Assembly (NCBI RefSeq): GCF_001677475.2
Contig: NZ_CP015229.1
Strand: one strand, 5' to 3'
Source of the DNA: Escherichia coli
Lineage (GTDB): Bacteria > Pseudomonadota > Gammaproteobacteria > Enterobacterales > Enterobacteriaceae
Length of the DNA: 64,000 nt
How positions within the stretch are numbered: the stretch's first letter is position 1; each line of letters starts with the position of its first letter. Shown in pieces: positions 45,705-54,322 of the stretch. The notes beneath the pieces are model-generated. The model was given only the letters and a program-made list of their open reading frames with translations, made no database searches and was not told where the DNA came from. The translations under genes and the position numbers were made by a program.

Positions 45705-47465
45705 ATGGTAACTCATCGTCAGCGCTACCGTGAAAAAGTCTCCCAGATGGTCAGTTGGGGGCACTGGTTTGCACTGTTCAATATTCTGCTTTCGCTCGTC
45801 ATTGGCAGCCGTTACCTGTTTATCGCCGACTGGCCGACAACGCTTGCTGGTCGCATTTATTCCTACGTAAGCATTATCGGCCATTTCAGCTTCCTGGTGT
45901 TCGCCACCTACTTGCTGATCCTCTTCCCGCTGACCTTTATCGTCGGCTCCCAGAGGCTGATGAGGTTTTTGTCCGTCATTCTGGCAACGGCGGGAATGAC
46001 ACTATTACTGATCGATAGCGAAGTCTTTACTCGTTTCCATCTCCATCTTAATCCCATCGTCTGGCAACTGGTTATTAACCCAGACGAAAATGAGATGGCG
46101 CGCGACTGGCAGCTGATGTTCATCAGCGTGCCGGTTATTTTATTGCTTGAACTGGTGTTTGCGACGTGGAGCTGGCAAAAGCTGCGCAGCCTGACGCGTC
46201 GTCGACGCTTCGCGCGCCCGCTGGCCGCATTCTTATTTATCGCCTTTATCGCCTCGCATGTGGTGTATATCTGGGCCGATGCCAACTTCTATCGCCCGAT
46301 CACCATGCAGCGCGCTAACCTGCCGCTTTCGTACCCGATGACGGCGCGACGTTTTCTTGAGAAGCATGGTCTGCTTGATGCGCAGGAGTATCAACGCCGT
46401 CTTATTGAGCAAGGTAATCCAGACGCCGTTTCCGTTCAGTATCCGTTAAGCGAACTGCGCTATCGCGATATGGGCACCGGGCAGAATGTGCTGTTGATTA
46501 CTGTCGATGGCCTGAACTACTCACGCTTCGAGAAGCAGATGCCTGCACTGGCAGGTTTTGCTGAGCAAAATATTTCGTTCACGCGCCATATGAGCTCCGG
46601 CAACACTACAGACAACGGCATCTTTGGCCTGTTCTATGGCATCTCGCCGAGCTATATGGACGGCATTCTGTCGACCCGTACCCCTGCGGCGTTAATTACT
46701 GCGCTTAATCAGCAAGGCTATCAGCTGGGGTTATTCTCGTCGGATGGCTTTACCAGCCCGCTGTATCGCCAGGCATTGTTGTCAGATTTCTCGATGCCGA
46801 GCGTACGCACCCAATCTGACGATCAGACCGCCACGCAGTGGATCAACTGGCTGGGCCGCTACGCACAAGAAGATAACCGCTGGTTCTCGTGGGTTTCTTT
46901 CAATGGCACTAACATTGACGACAGCAATCAGCAGGCATTTGCACGGAAATATAGCCGGGCGGCAGGCAATGTCGATGACCAGATCAACCGCGTGCTCAAT
47001 GCACTGCGTGATTCTGGCAAACTGGACAATACGGTGGTGATTATCACTGCCGGTCGGGGTATTCCACTGAGCGAAGAGGAAGAAACCTTTGACTGGTCCC
47101 ACGGTCATCTGCAGGTGCCATTAGTGATTCACTGGCCAGGTACGCCGGCGCAGCGTATTAATGCTCTGACTGATCATACCGATCTGATGACGACGCTGAT
47201 GCAACGCCTGCTACATGTCAGCACACCTGCCAGCGAATATTCGCAAGGTCAGGATTTGTTCAACCCTCAACGCCGTCATTACTGGGTTACCGCCGCGGAT
47301 AACGATACGCTGGCAATTACCACCCCGAAAAAGACGCTGGTGCTGAACAATAACGGTAAATACCGTACTTACAACTTACGTGGTGAAAGAGTGAAAGATG
47401 AAAAACCACAGTTAAGTTTGTTATTGCAAGTGCTGACAGACGAGAAGCGTTTTATCGCTAACTGA
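45705..47465 (+). CDS. yejM: Inner-membrane sulfatase-fold protein (PbgA/LapC; LPS homeostasis)
   Basis: 586-aa ORF with N-terminal 5-TM domain and periplasmic alkaline-phosphatase-like domain. Confidence 0.9.
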   Translation: MVTHRQRYREKVSQMVSWGHWFALFNILLSLVIGSRYLFIADWPTTLAGRIYSYVSIIGHFSFLVFATYLLILFPLTFIVGSQRLMRFLSVILATAGMTLLLIDSEVFTRFHLHLNPIVWQLVINPDENEMARDWQLMFISVPVILLLELVFATWSWQKLRSLTRRRRFARPLAAFLFIAFIASHVVYIWADANFYRPITMQRANLPLSYPMTARRFLEKHGLLDAQEYQRRLIEQGNPDAVSVQYPLSELRYRDMGTGQNVLLITVDGLNYSRFEKQMPALAGFAEQNISFTRHMSSGNTTDNGIFGLFYGISPSYMDGILSTRTPAALITALNQQGYQLGLFSSDGFTSPLYRQALLSDFSMPSVRTQSDDQTATQWINWLGRYAQEDNRWFSWVSFNGTNIDDSNQQAFARKYSRAAGNVDDQINRVLNALRDSGKLDNTVVIITAGRGIPLSEEEETFDWSHGHLQVPLVIHWPGTPAQRINALTDHTDLMTTLMQRLLHVSTPASEYSQGQDLFNPQRRHYWVTAADNDTLAITTPKKTLVLNNNGKYRTYNLRGERVKDEKPQLSLLLQVLTDEKRFIAN

Positions 47466-47539
47466 TTAATTATAAATCAGTTAGCGAAATATCTTACTTG
47501 CAATCGGTGTGGAAAACGGTAGTATTAGCAGCCACGAGT

Positions 47540-47616
47540 CGGCACGTAGCGCAGCCTGGTAGCGCACCGTCATGGGGTGTCGGGGGTCGGAGGTTCAAAT
47601 CCTCTCGTGCCGACCA
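47540..47616 (+). tRNA. proL: tRNA-Pro (anticodon GGG)
   Basis: CGGCACGTAGCGCAGCCTGGTAGCGCACCGTCATGGGGTGTCGGGGGTCGGAGGTTCAAATCCTCTCGTGCCGACCA; cloverleaf with GGG anticodon; encoded CCA absent. Confidence 0.9.
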
Positions 47617-47618
47617 AA
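47602..47618 (+). repeat. attL core (3' end of tRNA-Pro)
   Basis: CTCTCGTGCCGACCAAA, identical to the copy at 58597-58613. Confidence 0.8.
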
Positions 47619-47652
47619 TCGCCCACCGGAAAGCACCGAATAAGACAGGGAT

Positions 47653-47686
47653 AACCCGCTAATCACTTGATTGGCGGGTTTTTTTA
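47653..47686 (+). terminator. Rho-independent terminator downstream of proL (island-borne)
   Basis: AACCCGCTAATCACTTGATTGGCGGGTTTTTTT: stem-loop plus T7 run. Confidence 0.6.
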
Positions 47687-47740
47687 TGGTTTTTAGTCAC
47701 CGAACATCACCGGATTTATAAGCTATCAGCCGGATTTTTT

Positions 47741-47790
47741 AGTTATACGTTTAGTTATACGGGCTGGCGTATAACTAAAGCCGTATAACT
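47741..47790. repeat. Candidate integrase arm-type sites: 2 x AGTTATACG followed by 2 x CGTATAACT (inverted)
   Basis: TAGTTATACGTTTAGTTATACGGGCTGGCGTATAACTAAAGCCGTATAACT just upstream of int; related GCTA(C/T)ACG pair near attR at 58515-58535. Confidence 0.5.
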
Positions 47791-47824
47791 AAAACCCTGT
47801 TTTTTCGTGTGGAATCATAGACAT

Positions 47825-49066
47825 ATGGCGAGAAAAACACCCCCATTAACCACAGTGCAGATCAAAGCAGCCAGACCAGCGCAAAAGGAGTACACCCTAC
47901 AGGACGGCGGTGGGCTTTTTCTCCTGGTAAAACCGTCCGGATCAAAACTCTGGCGATTTTCCTACTACCGACCATCGGACAAAAAAAGAATATTGCTGAG
48001 TTTTGGATCGCTTGAAGATGTTTCCCTGGCTGATGCCAGAAAACGCCGTAGCGAGTACAGGACGTTAATCAGTGCCGGAACTGACCCGCAGGACCATGAG
48101 AAGAAAAAACGAGAGGCAGAGGCCCGAAGACAAGGGAACACGTTCGAAAATGTGGCGGCGGCATGGTACCAGGTGAAAATCAGCCAGAATCTGGCCCCCA
48201 ACACGATTAAAGACATCTGGCGTTCGCTGGATAAATATGTATTCCCGTTCATCGGCAACACGCCAATAGATACCCTCACCGCTCGCCGCTTTGTTGAGAT
48301 ACTCACACCCATTAAAGCACGCGGCAACCTGGAAACTCTGAAACGCGTTTTACAACGCATCAATGAAGTGATGGATTTTGCTGCCAACAGTGGGCTGATT
48401 GACATCAACACCGCCGCGAACGTCCGCAAGGCATTCCCTTCCCCCACTAAAAAGCATATGCCAACCATCCGACCGGAACAGCTACCGCAGCTAATGCACG
48501 ATTTATCGGTCGCCAGCATAGAACGGCAAACCAGATTGCTAATCGAGTGGCAACTGCTGACCGTAGCACGCCCAGCCGAAGCAGCCGCCGCACGCTGGGA
48601 AGAAATAGATCTCGATGCCGAAACATGGACGATTCCAGCCGGACGCATGAAGATGCGCCGTGACCATGTGATCCCTCTTTGCGGTCAGGCGATAGCTGTA
48701 CTGGAAACAATGAAGCCAATCAGCGCACACAGGGAACATGTTTTTCCCAGCCTTAAAAATCCAATGCTGCCAATGAGCAGCCAGACCGCTAACGCTGCAT
48801 TGCGCCGGATGGGATACGCTGGTGTGCTGGTGTCTCACGGATTACGCGCCATATTCAGTACAGCAGCGAACGAGGAAGGATTCGAGCCGGACGTAATCGA
48901 GGCCGCACTCGCACACGTGGACACGAACGAGGTAAGGCGAGCATATAACCGAAGTAACTACCTGGAAAAGCGCGTGGTGCTTATGCGCTGGTGGGGGGAA
49001 TTTGTAGAGGCCGCAGCTACCGGAGTGACCATAGCCAGTGGTAAAAGGGGTATCCGTGCCGTGTAA
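47825..49066 (+). CDS. int: Tyrosine recombinase / integrase, P4-like (N-terminal DUF4102-type arm-binding domain)
   Basis: MARKTPPLTTVQIKAARPAQKEYTLQDGGGLFLLVKPSGSKLWRFSYY... with C-terminal catalytic region (HGLRA...RAYNRSNY); adjacent to tRNA. The GTG at 47807 is an alternative start. Confidence 0.85.
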   Translation: MARKTPPLTTVQIKAARPAQKEYTLQDGGGLFLLVKPSGSKLWRFSYYRPSDKKRILLSFGSLEDVSLADARKRRSEYRTLISAGTDPQDHEKKKREAEARRQGNTFENVAAAWYQVKISQNLAPNTIKDIWRSLDKYVFPFIGNTPIDTLTARRFVEILTPIKARGNLETLKRVLQRINEVMDFAANSGLIDINTAANVRKAFPSPTKKHMPTIRPEQLPQLMHDLSVASIERQTRLLIEWQLLTVARPAEAAAARWEEIDLDAETWTIPAGRMKMRRDHVIPLCGQAIAVLETMKPISAHREHVFPSLKNPMLPMSSQTANAALRRMGYAGVLVSHGLRAIFSTAANEEGFEPDVIEAALAHVDTNEVRRAYNRSNYLEKRVVLMRWWGEFVEAAATGVTIASGKRGIRAV

Positions 49067-49164
49067 CTGTACAAAAAACCAGTAAAAGCGATGCAAACCA
49101 TGCCAAACCATCGTATAATTGCCACAAATTTAACGACAAGGCCGGAGTATATGAAAATTCTATT

Positions 49165-49395: not shown

Positions 49396-49565
49396 TCACA
49401 ATAGCGGCCCTTTGCGGTCGCTATTTTTTTGCAGAAAGAAAAGCGTAATCAATGAGATAAAAAACAGTGGGTACCGTTTTAAAACGGTGGGTACTGTTTT
49501 TCCCGCCCTGCCCTGTTTTACCGTATTTATCACCGGAATACGCCGGATTAACGAGGTAAAACATA

Positions 49566-49772
49566 GTGGAAACAATCAGAAAAATACTTACCCGTCAGGA
49601 AGTAAAAAATATTCTGCGCATCAAGGCAGACAGTTCGCTACAGGACATGATCAACGCCGGAAAATTCCCGAAAGGCTTCAAAATCGGTCTGCGTCGTGTT
49701 GGCTGGTATGAAGATGAAGTGCTGGCCTGGCTGAAAGAGCGCGAGGAAGAAGCGCGCGGAACGGCTGCGTAA
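49566..49772 (+). CDS. alpA: AlpA-family (HTH_17) transcriptional regulator / excisionase-like protein
   Basis: GTG start with GAGG SD; 68 aa, LTRQEVKNILRIKADSSLQDMINAGKFPKGFKIGLRRVGWYEDEVLAWL matches the AlpA/prophage CP4-57 regulator pattern. Confidence 0.8.
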   Translation: METIRKILTRQEVKNILRIKADSSLQDMINAGKFPKGFKIGLRRVGWYEDEVLAWLKEREEEARGTAA

Positions 49773-51413: not shown

Positions 51414-53215
51414 AACTGGCACCGAACTTAAAAAAACAGCCACACGACAAAATGACCGAAGTCATTATTTTTGCAGGTAGTGATGCCTGGGCGCACGCGA
51501 AACAGTGGCAGGAACAGGACGGGCGACTTGCTGGCGACAACGTGCCACCTGTATGGCTGGGAGACAGCCAGCTTGACGAACTGGCAGACCTGAAAATTAT
51601 CGACGATGGTCGCTATTGTGTCCGGCTGTACAAGGCAGGCCACATCAAGCCGTCAAATATTAATGCCATCGGGCAAAAGCTGGCGGCGGCAGGTGTACGG
51701 GATGCGAGATATTACCCTGAGGGAATGCACAGCCAGAAGCGGGAGGAGTGGCGCGAATATCTGGAGCGTGCGCGCCAGAATCTTTCTGATGGTCTGGTTA
51801 TTCAGCTTCCTGTTAAGAAAAAAACAGAAGACAGCGCCGCACCACTGGCGCTTAACCAGATGGGAGCAAGCCAGCGCGGCGAAGTTCTCCTGGCACGTTA
51901 TGGCGGCGAACTGGCAATTAATGCGGACTCTGACACCGTTCACCACTACAACGGCGTTGTATGGGAGCCGGTACAGGATAAAGAGTTACAGCGGGCTATG
52001 GCACAGATTTTTATTGATGCGGAGATCAGTTATTCGCAGAACGCCATCAAATCGGCGGTCGATACCATGAAGTTAAGTTTGCCCGTAATGGGGAATACCG
52101 CCCGTAACCTGATTGGATTCAGTAACGGTGTTTTTGATACCCGGACAGGCGATTTTCGGGAGCATGACAAAAACGACTGGCTGTTAATTGCCAGTGAATT
52201 ACCGTTCAGCCCGCCAGCAGAGGGGGAAACGCTGGCAACGCATGCGCCGAATTTCTGGAAATGGTTGCGCCGTTCGGTGGCAGAGAATGGCCGTAAAGCG
52301 GATCGCGTACTGGCGGCGTTATTCATGGTGCTGGCGAACCGATACGACTGGCAGTTATTTCTTGAGGTAACGGGGCCGGGTGGAAGCGGTAAAAGCGTAA
52401 TGGCGGAGATTTGCACCATGCTGGCGGGTAAGGCCAACACGGTATCGGCAAGCATGAAGGCGCTGGAAGATGCCAGGGAACGCGCGTTAGTGGTTGGCTT
52501 TTCGCTGATTATCATGCCGGATATGACCCGCTACGCTGGTGATGGTGCAGGTATTAAGGCCATTACAGGCGGTGACAAAGTGGCAATCGACCCGAAACAT
52601 AAAGCTCCCTACTCAACACGCATTCAGGCGGTCGTGCTGGCGGTGAACAATAACGCCATGTCATTCAGTGACCGCAGTGGGGGGATCTCACGTCGTCGGG
52701 TGATATTCAATTTTTCGGAGGTTGTACCGGAGAACGAACGCGACCCCATGCTGGCAGAAAAAATAGAAGGAGAGCTGGCGGTTGTGATTCGCCACCTGCT
52801 TACTCGTTTTTCTGACCAGGACAAAGCTAAACGCCTGCTGTATGAGCAGCAGAAATCAGAAGAAGCTCTGGTGATAAAACGCGAGGGCGATTCGCTGGTG
52901 GACTTCTGCGGCTATCTCATGTCGTCGGTAATGTGTGATGGTCTGTTAGTGGGTAATGCCGAAATTATTCCGTTCAGTCCGCGCAGATATCTTTATCACG
53001 CCTATCTGGCATATATGAGGGCACACGGATTCGGTAAACCTGTAACACTGACGCGCTTCGGTAAAGATATGCCGGGGGCAATGGCGGAATATGGCAGGGA
53101 GTATATGAAACGGAAAACGAAGCACGGTTTGCGTTCAAATGTGACCCTGACAGAGGATTCAGAAGACTGGATGCCATCATGTACATCGGTCACAAATGAC
53201 GATGGAAAAAATTAA
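51410..53215 (+). CDS. Replication protein: primase C-terminal-like / SF3-type helicase P-loop NTPase (satellite Pri-Rep)
   Basis: 601-aa ORF with Walker A TGPGGSGKS and a hydrophobic stretch ending in D (Walker B-like, VVGFSLIIMPD); immediately followed by an iteron-rich origin. Confidence 0.75.
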   Translation: MKLAPNLKKQPHDKMTEVIIFAGSDAWAHAKQWQEQDGRLAGDNVPPVWLGDSQLDELADLKIIDDGRYCVRLYKAGHIKPSNINAIGQKLAAAGVRDARYYPEGMHSQKREEWREYLERARQNLSDGLVIQLPVKKKTEDSAAPLALNQMGASQRGEVLLARYGGELAINADSDTVHHYNGVVWEPVQDKELQRAMAQIFIDAEISYSQNAIKSAVDTMKLSLPVMGNTARNLIGFSNGVFDTRTGDFREHDKNDWLLIASELPFSPPAEGETLATHAPNFWKWLRRSVAENGRKADRVLAALFMVLANRYDWQLFLEVTGPGGSGKSVMAEICTMLAGKANTVSASMKALEDARERALVVGFSLIIMPDMTRYAGDGAGIKAITGGDKVAIDPKHKAPYSTRIQAVVLAVNNNAMSFSDRSGGISRRRVIFNFSEVVPENERDPMLAEKIEGELAVVIRHLLTRFSDQDKAKRLLYEQQKSEEALVIKREGDSLVDFCGYLMSSVMCDGLLVGNAEIIPFSPRRYLYHAYLAYMRAHGFGKPVTLTRFGKDMPGAMAEYGREYMKRKTKHGLRSNVTLTEDSEDWMPSCTSVTNDDGKN

Positions 53216-53227
53216 ACTTATGGAATA

Positions 53228-53459
53228 ACTGTTCACCACTGTTCACCCTGTCATAAATGTCTTTTATATCAGTACATTATAGGGTGAACAGTTATTTGTG
53301 AACTGTTCACCAAACTATTCACTGTTCACCTTTTTGATTATTTATTGAGCTTTAAGGGTGAACAGTGGTGAACAGTTGGTGAATAGTTTTTGTGAAACTG
53401 TTCACCCCTTAACATCATGAATAAAAAGGGAAAATAGCAAAAGGTGAACAGGTGAAGAG
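53228..53459. repeat. Iteron-type replication origin: about 10 copies of ACTGTTCACC / GGTGAACAG in both orientations with AT-rich spacers
   Basis: CACTGTTCACCACTGTTCACC, GGGTGAACAGTT, GTGAACTGTTCACC, TTCACTGTTCACC, GGGTGAACAGTGGTGAACAGTTGGTGAATAG, GAAACTGTTCACC, AAGGTGAACAGGTGAAGAG. Confidence 0.75.
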
Positions 53460-53502: not shown

Positions 53503-53748
53503 GTGACAACGAAGCACGCAAAAAAACCACAATCACACGCCCTTGATTTGACAGAACACTGGCTGAGGGTGGCGATAAAAATCATCGACCGCAACGCGGG
53601 AGAAGGATACGCGAAAGCGCATCCCGAACTGATAAGCGCATTCATGACCACGGCGGCGGCAAATTTTGCCACACTGACAGAACGGGAGATTGCCGAAGCG
53701 GAACAGGTGACAACCATCAACGTTAAAACCGGAGAGCAGACAGCATGA
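53503..53748 (+). CDS. Hypothetical protein (81 aa)
   Basis: GTG start with GAGGT SD; overlaps the start of the next ORF. Confidence 0.4.
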   Translation: MTTKHAKKPQSHALDLTEHWLRVAIKIIDRNAGEGYAKAHPELISAFMTTAAANFATLTEREIAEAEQVTTINVKTGEQTA

Positions 53749-54044
53749 CAGCACAGATAGCGGCTTGCGGGCGGCTGGTGGCTGACCCGCAGTTAAAGAC
53801 CACCAGCAAAGGGACACAAATGGCGATGGCGAGTATGGCGGTTCCCCTGCCGTGCAGCCAGGCAGATGACGGAACGGCGACGATGTGGTTATCTGTCCTG
53901 GCGTTTGGCAGACAGGCCGACGCACTGGCAAAACACCACAAAGGCGAACTCCTGAGCGTGGCGGGTAACATGCAGGTGAGCCAGTGGACAGGCCAGAACG
54001 GCGCGACCGGGCGGCAAAAAAGGTCAACAGGGCCAGGCCACTGA
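53745..54044 (+). CDS. SSB-like OB-fold single-stranded DNA-binding protein (short form)
   Basis: IAACGRLVADPQLKTT...WLSVLAFGRQADALAKHHKGELLSVAGNMQVSQWTGQNG follows the SSB OB-fold pattern (GxL..DPEL... W..V.xFG ... KG..V.V.G.L....W). Confidence 0.55.
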   Translation: MTAQIAACGRLVADPQLKTTSKGTQMAMASMAVPLPCSQADDGTATMWLSVLAFGRQADALAKHHKGELLSVAGNMQVSQWTGQNGATGRQKRSTGPGH

Positions 54045-54322
54045 CGCACTGAACAGGGCAAAACAACAGTCAGGGAATGATGAACCGTACGGCGATAATA
54101 TACCGTTTTAAATTCTGCAAACAAAAAGATGCCGGAAAAAAATAGATTTTCCGGCATGCTACATAAATCCCGACCAAAGGAAGTAAATACATTAACACGA
54201 ATTATCAGCACTGAAGTTGTCACGGCATATTTTATACAACATTGCACTTGGTTGCATGTATTCGCATAGCAGACATCGGTAATAGAATATATTCACAATT
54301 ATTTGTAATGAATGTAAAGAGG

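Follow-up and report, generated by a model that had tools for sequence, protein, structure and literature searches.

In phage P4, the arm-type sites of the integrase are annotated in record X51522 as 12-bp 'attP arm sequence repeat' features, and when read in the orientation of int they form a pair of abutting direct copies, followed by 53 bp, a 20-bp core, 112 bp, another such pair, 15 bp and, over the int ATG, a single inverted copy. The attP arm repeats and the promoter Pint of P4 were treated by Pierson & Kahn (1987) and Piazzolla et al. (2006), as cited in PMC2951348 and PMC7286903, and the same two articles cite the repression of Pint by P4 Int. In these articles, P4 Int with Vis, KplE1 IntS with TorI, and IntI of PAI I536 are given as repressors of their own int promoters, which overlap attL, and the arrangement of a tRNA followed by int is predicted to be autoregulated in general. 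KplE1 (CPS-53) has an attL of the 'STI' shape, a tRNA and then a co-oriented int, which contains four arm-type sites, P'1–P'4, and TorI sites that overlap the promoter PintS (Panis et al. 2010, PMC2951348). In KplE1 both Int and the directionality factor bind at the int promoter, and the outcome is negative autoregulation (PMC2951348).

Lambda Int, with the sites P1, P2 and P'1–P'3, is heterobivalent and uses a small N-terminal domain for the repeats in both arms, and IHF sites lie between the arms and the core. The lambda int gene is not adjacent to attL and its promoter does not lie inside the att site; to our knowledge, lambda int is not autoregulated through its arm sites. Arm-binding domains were also described for the integrases of Yersinia HPI (PDB 3JTZ/3RMP) and Pectobacterium HAI7 (PDB 3JU0) by Szwagierczak et al. 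(2009), as cited in PMC8138268. Among phage-inducible chromosomal islands (PICIs) of E. coli, EcCICFT073 needs Int for excision and transfer, and searches in the text of Fillol-Salom et al. (2018, PMC6092414) yielded no passage on integrase arm sites.

The window, that is the whole 64-kb stretch of E. coli DNA analysed here, contains an 11.0-kb island that is bounded by 17-bp direct repeats and is situated between yejM-proL and yejO (Table 1). The core CTCTCGTGCCGACCAAA comprises the final 15 nt of tRNA-Pro(GGG) plus two more. The island encodes an integrase of 413 aa, AlpA, a DUF4222 protein and a D5-type primase (Pfam, PHROGs), together with a lambda-E-type capsid protein, a D-type decoration protein, a second AlpA-like protein and a Nu1-type small terminase. 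The primase gene is directly followed by densely packed GGTGAACAG iterons of either orientation (53214–53428), likely the satellite's origin of replication. Taken together, the genes are those of a Gram-negative PICI satellite (PMC6092414), as the size, int, alpA, primase-replicase with iterons, packaging genes, single direction of transcription and specific att site were all found. EcCICFT073 (Fillol-Salom et al. 2018, PMC6092414) has the gene set and order int, alpA, pri-rep, ori iterons, capsid/TerS in common with the island, and E. coli PICIs of this type likewise measure ∼11 kb and are transcribed unidirectionally. The island SSB gene (53745–54160) is frameshifted relative to its 140-aa homologue in M11957, with the C-terminal part continuing in another frame. 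A (GCTG)11 microsatellite occupies 58165–58208 in the non-coding stretch before the attR arm; runs of at least four GCTG units were absent from the five related E. coli and E. albertii loci examined.

Of 5,426 complete E. coli genomes, 451 have regions similar to attL and the 5' part of int, Nissle 1917 and ATCC 25922 among them. About 160 further genomes fall in a band of 60–80% identity, and some strains keep only a proL remnant. One such remnant, in E. coli EC21Z-063 (L003, 16175–16651), consists of an attL with slightly degenerate arm sites and a truncated int, with an attR and its arm pair ∼1.4 kb away; it is the scar of a deleted island. Moreover, the attR cores of many strains carry small deletions, for example CTCTCGTGCGACC, CTCTCGTGGACC and CTCTCGTGCCAAAAA (L001 at ∼24020, L002 at ∼23990, L004 at ∼29915, L005 at ∼26945, L006 at ∼18070 and L011 at ∼18315), which would probably lock the island in place; the attR core of the window is intact.

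Table 1. Coordinates of the island ends, of int and alpA, and of the predicted sites in the window
Feature	Position	Strand	Basis
tRNA-Pro(GGG), proL, integration target	47540..47616	+	ARAGORN; Rfam tRNA; yejM-proL-island-yejO context in E. coli genomes
attL-side core, tRNA 3' end, CTCTCGTGCCGACCAAA, 17 bp	47602..47618	+	direct repeat with 58597-58613
CACCGRA twice at a spacing of exactly 10 bp, next to the core on its island side; speculative candidate for binding an AlpA/Vis-like accessory protein	47624..47640	+	
Intrinsic terminator supplied by the island for the tRNA	47653..47690	+	terminator scan; hairpin kept in all relatives
IHF-consensus match in the terminator loop	47660..47672	-	IHF pattern search
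Three CCGR motifs, CACCGAA (47698), CACCGGA (47708) and CAGCCGGA (47727), directly upstream of the arm sites	47698..47734	+	
Hypothetical int promoter, CTATCA-17-TACGTT, -10 spanning the boundary between sites 1 and 2; 2.4 bits, weak	47723..47751	+	PWM scan
Predicted arm-type site 1, int-proximal arm, TTTAGTTATACG	47738..47749	+	sequence, pattern search
Predicted arm-type site 2, TTTAGTTATACG, abuts site 1 (12-bp period)	47750..47761	+	sequence, pattern search
Predicted arm-type site 3, inverted copy	47768..47779	-	sequence, pattern search
Predicted arm-type site 4, inverted copy, ends 31 nt before the int ATG	47782..47793	-	sequence, pattern search
int, P4-like tyrosine integrase, 413 aa	47825..49066	+	Pfam, PHROGs
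alpA, HTH protein and homologue of P4 Vis; may be a directionality factor or an activator	49566..49772	+	Pfam PF05930; tblastn match to P4 orf88/vis
Predicted int-distal arm-type site, attR side, TTTAGCTACACG	58512..58523	+	pattern search, comparison with relatives
Predicted int-distal arm-type site, TTAAGCTATACG, abuts TTTAGCTACACG	58524..58535	+	pattern search, comparison with relatives
IHF-consensus match AATCAAATAGTTA, between distal arm sites and core	58567..58579	+	IHF pattern search
attR core, tRNA 3' end repeated intact over 17 bp, upstream of the original proL terminator	58597..58613	+	direct repeat

The original prediction placed two direct and then two inverted copies of a short repeat before int, and this was borne out, positions included, by the sequence and by exact search. 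The 9-mer AGTTATACG has exactly four exact copies in the 64-kb window, two per strand, at 47741–47749 and 47753–47761 on the plus strand and at 47768–47776 and 47782–47790 on the minus strand. The true repeat unit is the 12-bp TTTAGTTATACG, and the 56-bp block at 47738–47793 reads TTTAGTTATACG TTTAGTTATACG GGCTGG CGTATAACTAAA GC CGTATAACTAAA, so that two abutting direct copies are separated by a 6-bp spacer from two inverted copies with GC between them. A related GCTA(C/T)ACG pair had also been proposed near attR, and it is real: TTTAGCTACACG and TTAAGCTATACG abut in direct orientation, and the right end of the pair lies 61 bp left of the attR core. With at most one mismatch, the degenerate 12-mer TTWAGYTAYACG has seven matches in the window compared with 1.38 expected, a number reached in 0 of 100 shuffles, and six of the seven sit at the two ends of the island. 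Measured from the core, four copies lie 119–175 bp to the right and two copies 61–85 bp to the left, and their motif bears no relation to CTCTCGTGCCGACCAAA. Two further candidates were set aside. A third copy on the attR side, AATAGTTACACA at ∼58572, is poorly conserved and coincides with an IHF-consensus match, and is thus better taken as an IHF site; a weak copy at the int stop codon (49060–49071), with two mismatches and a conserved position, was left out of the count because it falls within coding sequence and two-mismatch matches are common.

Each arm has one of the window's five IHF-consensus matches, placed between its arm sites and the core as expected for an attP, and L004 and L005 have perfect consensus matches at the place equivalent to that of the attR-side match. 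Pairs of CACCGRA/CGCCGGA motifs exactly 10 bp apart occur at three places, namely just inside the core, directly upstream of the arm sites and, at 49531–49549, upstream of alpA; Nissle has a third 10-bp unit beside the pair next to the core. Phased CCGN motifs stand in the same position before the arm sites in P4 and in most relatives of every motif class, and are weak or absent in L006 and L016. These pairs may be binding sites of an AlpA/Vis-like protein, although AlpA had no effect on Pint in EcCICFT073. About 65 bp before alpA, at 49460–49501, lies a near-perfect palindrome of 21+21 bp, AAAAACAGTGGGTACCGTTTT/AAAACGGTGGGTACTGTTTTT, which the related E. coli islands retain in altered form; it may serve as an operator of the alpA promoter.

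The int gene follows the tRNA in the same orientation after a gap of 208 bp and adjoins attL. Its ATG, 31 nt past the last copy of the repeat, is the RefSeq-annotated start of the identical sequence in L001. Int is composed of Arm-DNA-bind_3 (PF13356), Phage_int_M and Phage_integrase domains (Pfam), with PF13356 at residues 8–94 (E 4.4e-23, above the curated cut-off). The N-terminus of Int matches the solved arm-binding domains PDB 3JU0 (E 9.8e-20) and 3JTZ (E 1.2e-11), that is, the N-terminal 100 residues of the HAI7 and HPI integrases (in round figures, E 1e-19 and 1e-11), whose Pfam domain is identical to that of the island Int; unlike the proL island, these two integrases belong to large genomic islands at other tRNAs. 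The division of labour would be that of lambda Int, as a small N-terminal domain would serve the repeats of both arms with IHF-consensus matches between arms and core, but the N-domain families differ (PF09003 in lambda, PF13356/DUF4102 here).

Comparison with X51522 showed that the island layout is that of P4 with another motif and one more inverted copy. Common to both are a unit of 12 bp, phased CCGN motifs just upstream of the proximal sites, and the order of a direct pair, ∼50–60 bp, a core in the tRNA 3' end, ∼110–120 bp, a second direct pair and inverted sequence; moreover, the two integrases are homologous, with 34% identity over 405 aa. The motif differs (ATTGGGGGCATA in P4, TTTAGTTATACG in the island), as does the target (leuX and proL, respectively). 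P4 has one inverted copy, over the ATG, whereas the island has two, which end before it, and the rest of the island is of PICI type, unlike P4. The attL of the island also has the STI shape of KplE1 and likewise four sites, here predicted, but integrase clade, motif and tRNA (argW in KplE1) differ; binding and repression were demonstrated for KplE1 (PMC2951348), and we infer them for the island.

On the excised circle, attP would begin on its left arm with the two direct sites (58512–58535), 31 bp, an IHF-like site and 17 bp before the 17-bp core. To the right of the core there would be 119 bp with the tRNA terminator, the second IHF-like site and the phased CCGR motifs, and then the direct pair (47738–47761), 6 bp, the inverted pair (47768–47793), 31 bp and the int ATG. 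The Arm-DNA-bind_3 domain of Int (residues 8–94) would bind the repeats and the C-terminal domains would bind the core, so that Int bridging arms and core would build the intasome for integration of the island at proL and for its excision. Int at the int-proximal cluster would probably also repress its own transcription, as in P4, KplE1 and PAI I536.

The layout is retained in relatives. STEC367 and M11957, which have an island at the same site and are ∼70% identical in the int 5' region, keep the block of two direct and two inverted copies in the same place; the DNA from the terminator to the block diverges strongly from that of the window (alignment A1). The two arms also agree with each other, as Nissle and MFDS1022581 carry AGTTATACG on both arms and STEC367 and M11957 carry AGCTAYACG on both. 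The window, like each of the ten relatives for which far-end sequence exists, has an abutting direct pair whose distance to the attR core, or to the corresponding end of the island, on its right is ∼55–70 bp. A scan for relatives with one genome per species gave 80 related int loci, the closest of which have the same layout upstream of int with different motifs. Among 77 related int loci (28–86% identity to the query), 38 have, in the 200 bp upstream of int, two direct copies spaced 11–13 bp and then an inverted one, an arrangement found in none of 770 shuffles. The inverted copies by the int ATG number from one to four across relatives and overlap the start codon in several, and direct and inverted copies are unequal in number in P4 (2+1), L017 (3+1) and L011 (2+4). 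At motif position 6, 38 of the 72 collected sites have C and 31 have T, and a single island often has both.

Motifs of the relatives fall into classes. Nine loci carry TTTAGYTATACG, E. albertii, Edwardsiella hoshinae and Pantoea stewartii among them; four loci carry TTTRGGACTAGA (Erwinia psidii, Citrobacter, an Escherichia clade and Rosenbergiella), and islands at tmRNA sites have GGTAC-type motifs. GGACTAG-class islands had no megablast match in complete E. coli genomes. Wherever the far end is present, the attR pair belongs to the island's own motif class. Residues 1–90 of Int split cleanly by motif class, and the class-specific substitutions are located in residues 21–50, with residues 23, 26, 32, 40, 42, 44–46 and 49 being characteristic of a class. 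A natural domain swap is seen in L013 (Pantoea, AGYTATACG), whose Int is 90–93% identical over residues 91–413 to those of L010–L012 (Citrobacter/Erwinia, GGACTAG) but just 51–53% identical over residues 1–90; proL is the insertion site of all four. This comparison indicates that the repeats change with the arm-binding domain rather than with the catalytic or core-binding portion. Consistently, in partial Mantel tests motif distance was related to that of the N-domain when the remainder of Int was controlled for (r 0.37, p 5e-4), and not to that of the remainder when the N-domain was controlled for (r 0.03, p 0.29), figures that are supportive rather than proof because related sequences are non-independent samples. 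AlpA shows no partition by motif class: AlpA of L013 is 69% identical to AlpA of GGACTAG islands, closer than to AlpA of several islands of its own class.

Comparison therefore strongly supports the original reading of the repeats as arm-type integrase sites, since Int has the P4-type arm-binding domain, the repeats are found on both arms, their layout is kept, their motif class follows the Int N-domain and P4 is annotated alike. On this sequence evidence, the six 12-bp repeats are very probably the arm-type sites of the island's own P4-family integrase. The complete explanation, in which these sites serve Int for integration and excision and Int probably also represses itself, we hold to be probable to nearly the same degree.

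Autorepression taken separately is a less secure part of this explanation, and by analogy with the described systems we lean only slightly towards it. In the integrated state, transcription of int must start within 47691–47824 because of the tRNA terminator, and the repeats fill 56 bp of these ∼135 bp. A consensus promoter scan reached its threshold nowhere in 47450–48000. By a simple PWM scan, 10 of 15 family members including P4 have as their best sigma-70 candidate one whose -35 lies ∼15 bp before the first direct copy and whose -10 spans the boundary between this copy and the second, for example TTGAAA-18-CATAAT in P4 and TTTACA-17-TAGATT in the GGACTAG class. The corresponding candidate of the window is weak (Table 1), and in the L004 lineage it scores about 0 bits. 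Because of the empty scan and this weak candidate, the argument for autorepression is one of analogy and geometry. An extended -10, TGGAATCAT (47809–47817), which would give a leaderless int mRNA, was considered and is not conserved in relatives (alignment A1).

The same promoter results favour a narrower view, in which the repeats serve recombination only and the int promoter lies elsewhere or is constitutive and weak; the distal arm, which carries sites where there is no gene to regulate, points in this direction as well. Against it, the terminator leaves the int promoter little room outside the repeats, the inverted copies by the ATG vary in number and reach over the start codon in several relatives, and there is experimental precedent for repression in P4, KplE1 and PAI I536 (PMC2951348, PMC7286903). 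We therefore regard a role in recombination only as unlikely, though a serious contender.

Other explanations dispense with Int as the ligand. The 2+2 inverted arrangement resembles operators of dimeric regulators, and two AlpA-family proteins are encoded on the island, so that the palindromic block might be an operator of another DNA-binding protein of the island, for example AlpA or a second HTH protein. The copies beside attR, with nothing there to regulate, and the unequal numbers of direct and inverted copies in relatives do not fit such an operator. Moreover, motif class tracks the Int N-domain and not AlpA, as L013 illustrates, and AlpA was without effect on Pint in EcCICFT073 (PMC6092414); since AlpA identity is independent of motif class and AlpA lacks that effect, we consider an operator of this kind very improbable. 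Still more improbable, in our estimate, is that selection acts on a hairpin, whether of RNA, as an attenuator or terminator of the int leader, or of DNA, as a cruciform, rather than on a protein-binding motif. As RNA, 47725–47830 folds to -35.6 kcal/mol (z = -4.97), and a T-run follows downstream at 47800–47805. This T-run, however, begins several nucleotides past the stem and is missing in diverged relatives, the terminator scan does not call the hairpin, an Rfam search had no match other than the tRNA, and the repeat block has the features neither of an intrinsic terminator nor of a structured RNA leader. The attR copies are all direct and are thus unable to pair, and the unequal copy numbers in relatives break the pairing while the motif stays. 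It follows that the motif, and not the hairpin, is conserved, in agreement with arm-type sites for Int.

Positions 3, 6 and 9 of the repeat are not the same in the attR and the attL sites, a difference explained by the origin of the island. Binned identity and domain identities place a recombination breakpoint inside int at ∼48228. The sequence 47540–48227 is 90–100% identical to the Nissle/MFDS1022581 type (95–100% from 47630 on), and 48228–49127 is 89–100% identical to the M11957/STEC367 type. As judged from these identities, int and the island are a recombinant of two lineages, with attL and int to about codon 135 of the Nissle/MFDS1022581 type and the rest of int and the attR arm of the M11957/STEC367 type, which accounts for the different variants at the two ends. 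The junction at 48228 is absent from the 5,426 complete E. coli genomes, where the best match over 47700–48700 is 90.3%. Residues 21–50 of the N-domains of the two lineages differ at three positions, all conservative, suggesting that the N-domain of the window could also use the attR variants. Given these near-identical residues and the mixing of C and T at position 6, the hybrid is probably still self-compatible.

A wider scenario may be drawn from these comparisons, although we think that it is more likely wrong than right and put it forward only as a conjecture of rather low probability. The Int N-domain and its cognate 12-bp repeats would be exchanged as a cassette among satellites that have the catalytic domain and attB (proL) in common, giving orthogonal intasomes to competing islands, with the window as a rare hybrid; the one to four inverted copies at the int start would then be a dedicated autorepression operator and not recombination sites.

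The sites described here are an unreported example of the known P4-family arm-type sites, with an int that is probably autoregulated, and their mechanism is not new; given the P4-like layout of the repeats, the case is ordinary, though well supported. For the family, the natural domain swaps indicate that arm-site specificity of P4-type integrases sits in residues 1–90 and can change while the target tRNA stays constant. For E. coli, the result is a testable att-site map, consisting of the core, six arm sites and two IHF-like sites, for a PICI satellite present in several hundred genomes, which may be of use in the annotation of island ends, the engineering of PICI-based delivery vehicles and the design of orthogonal integrases.
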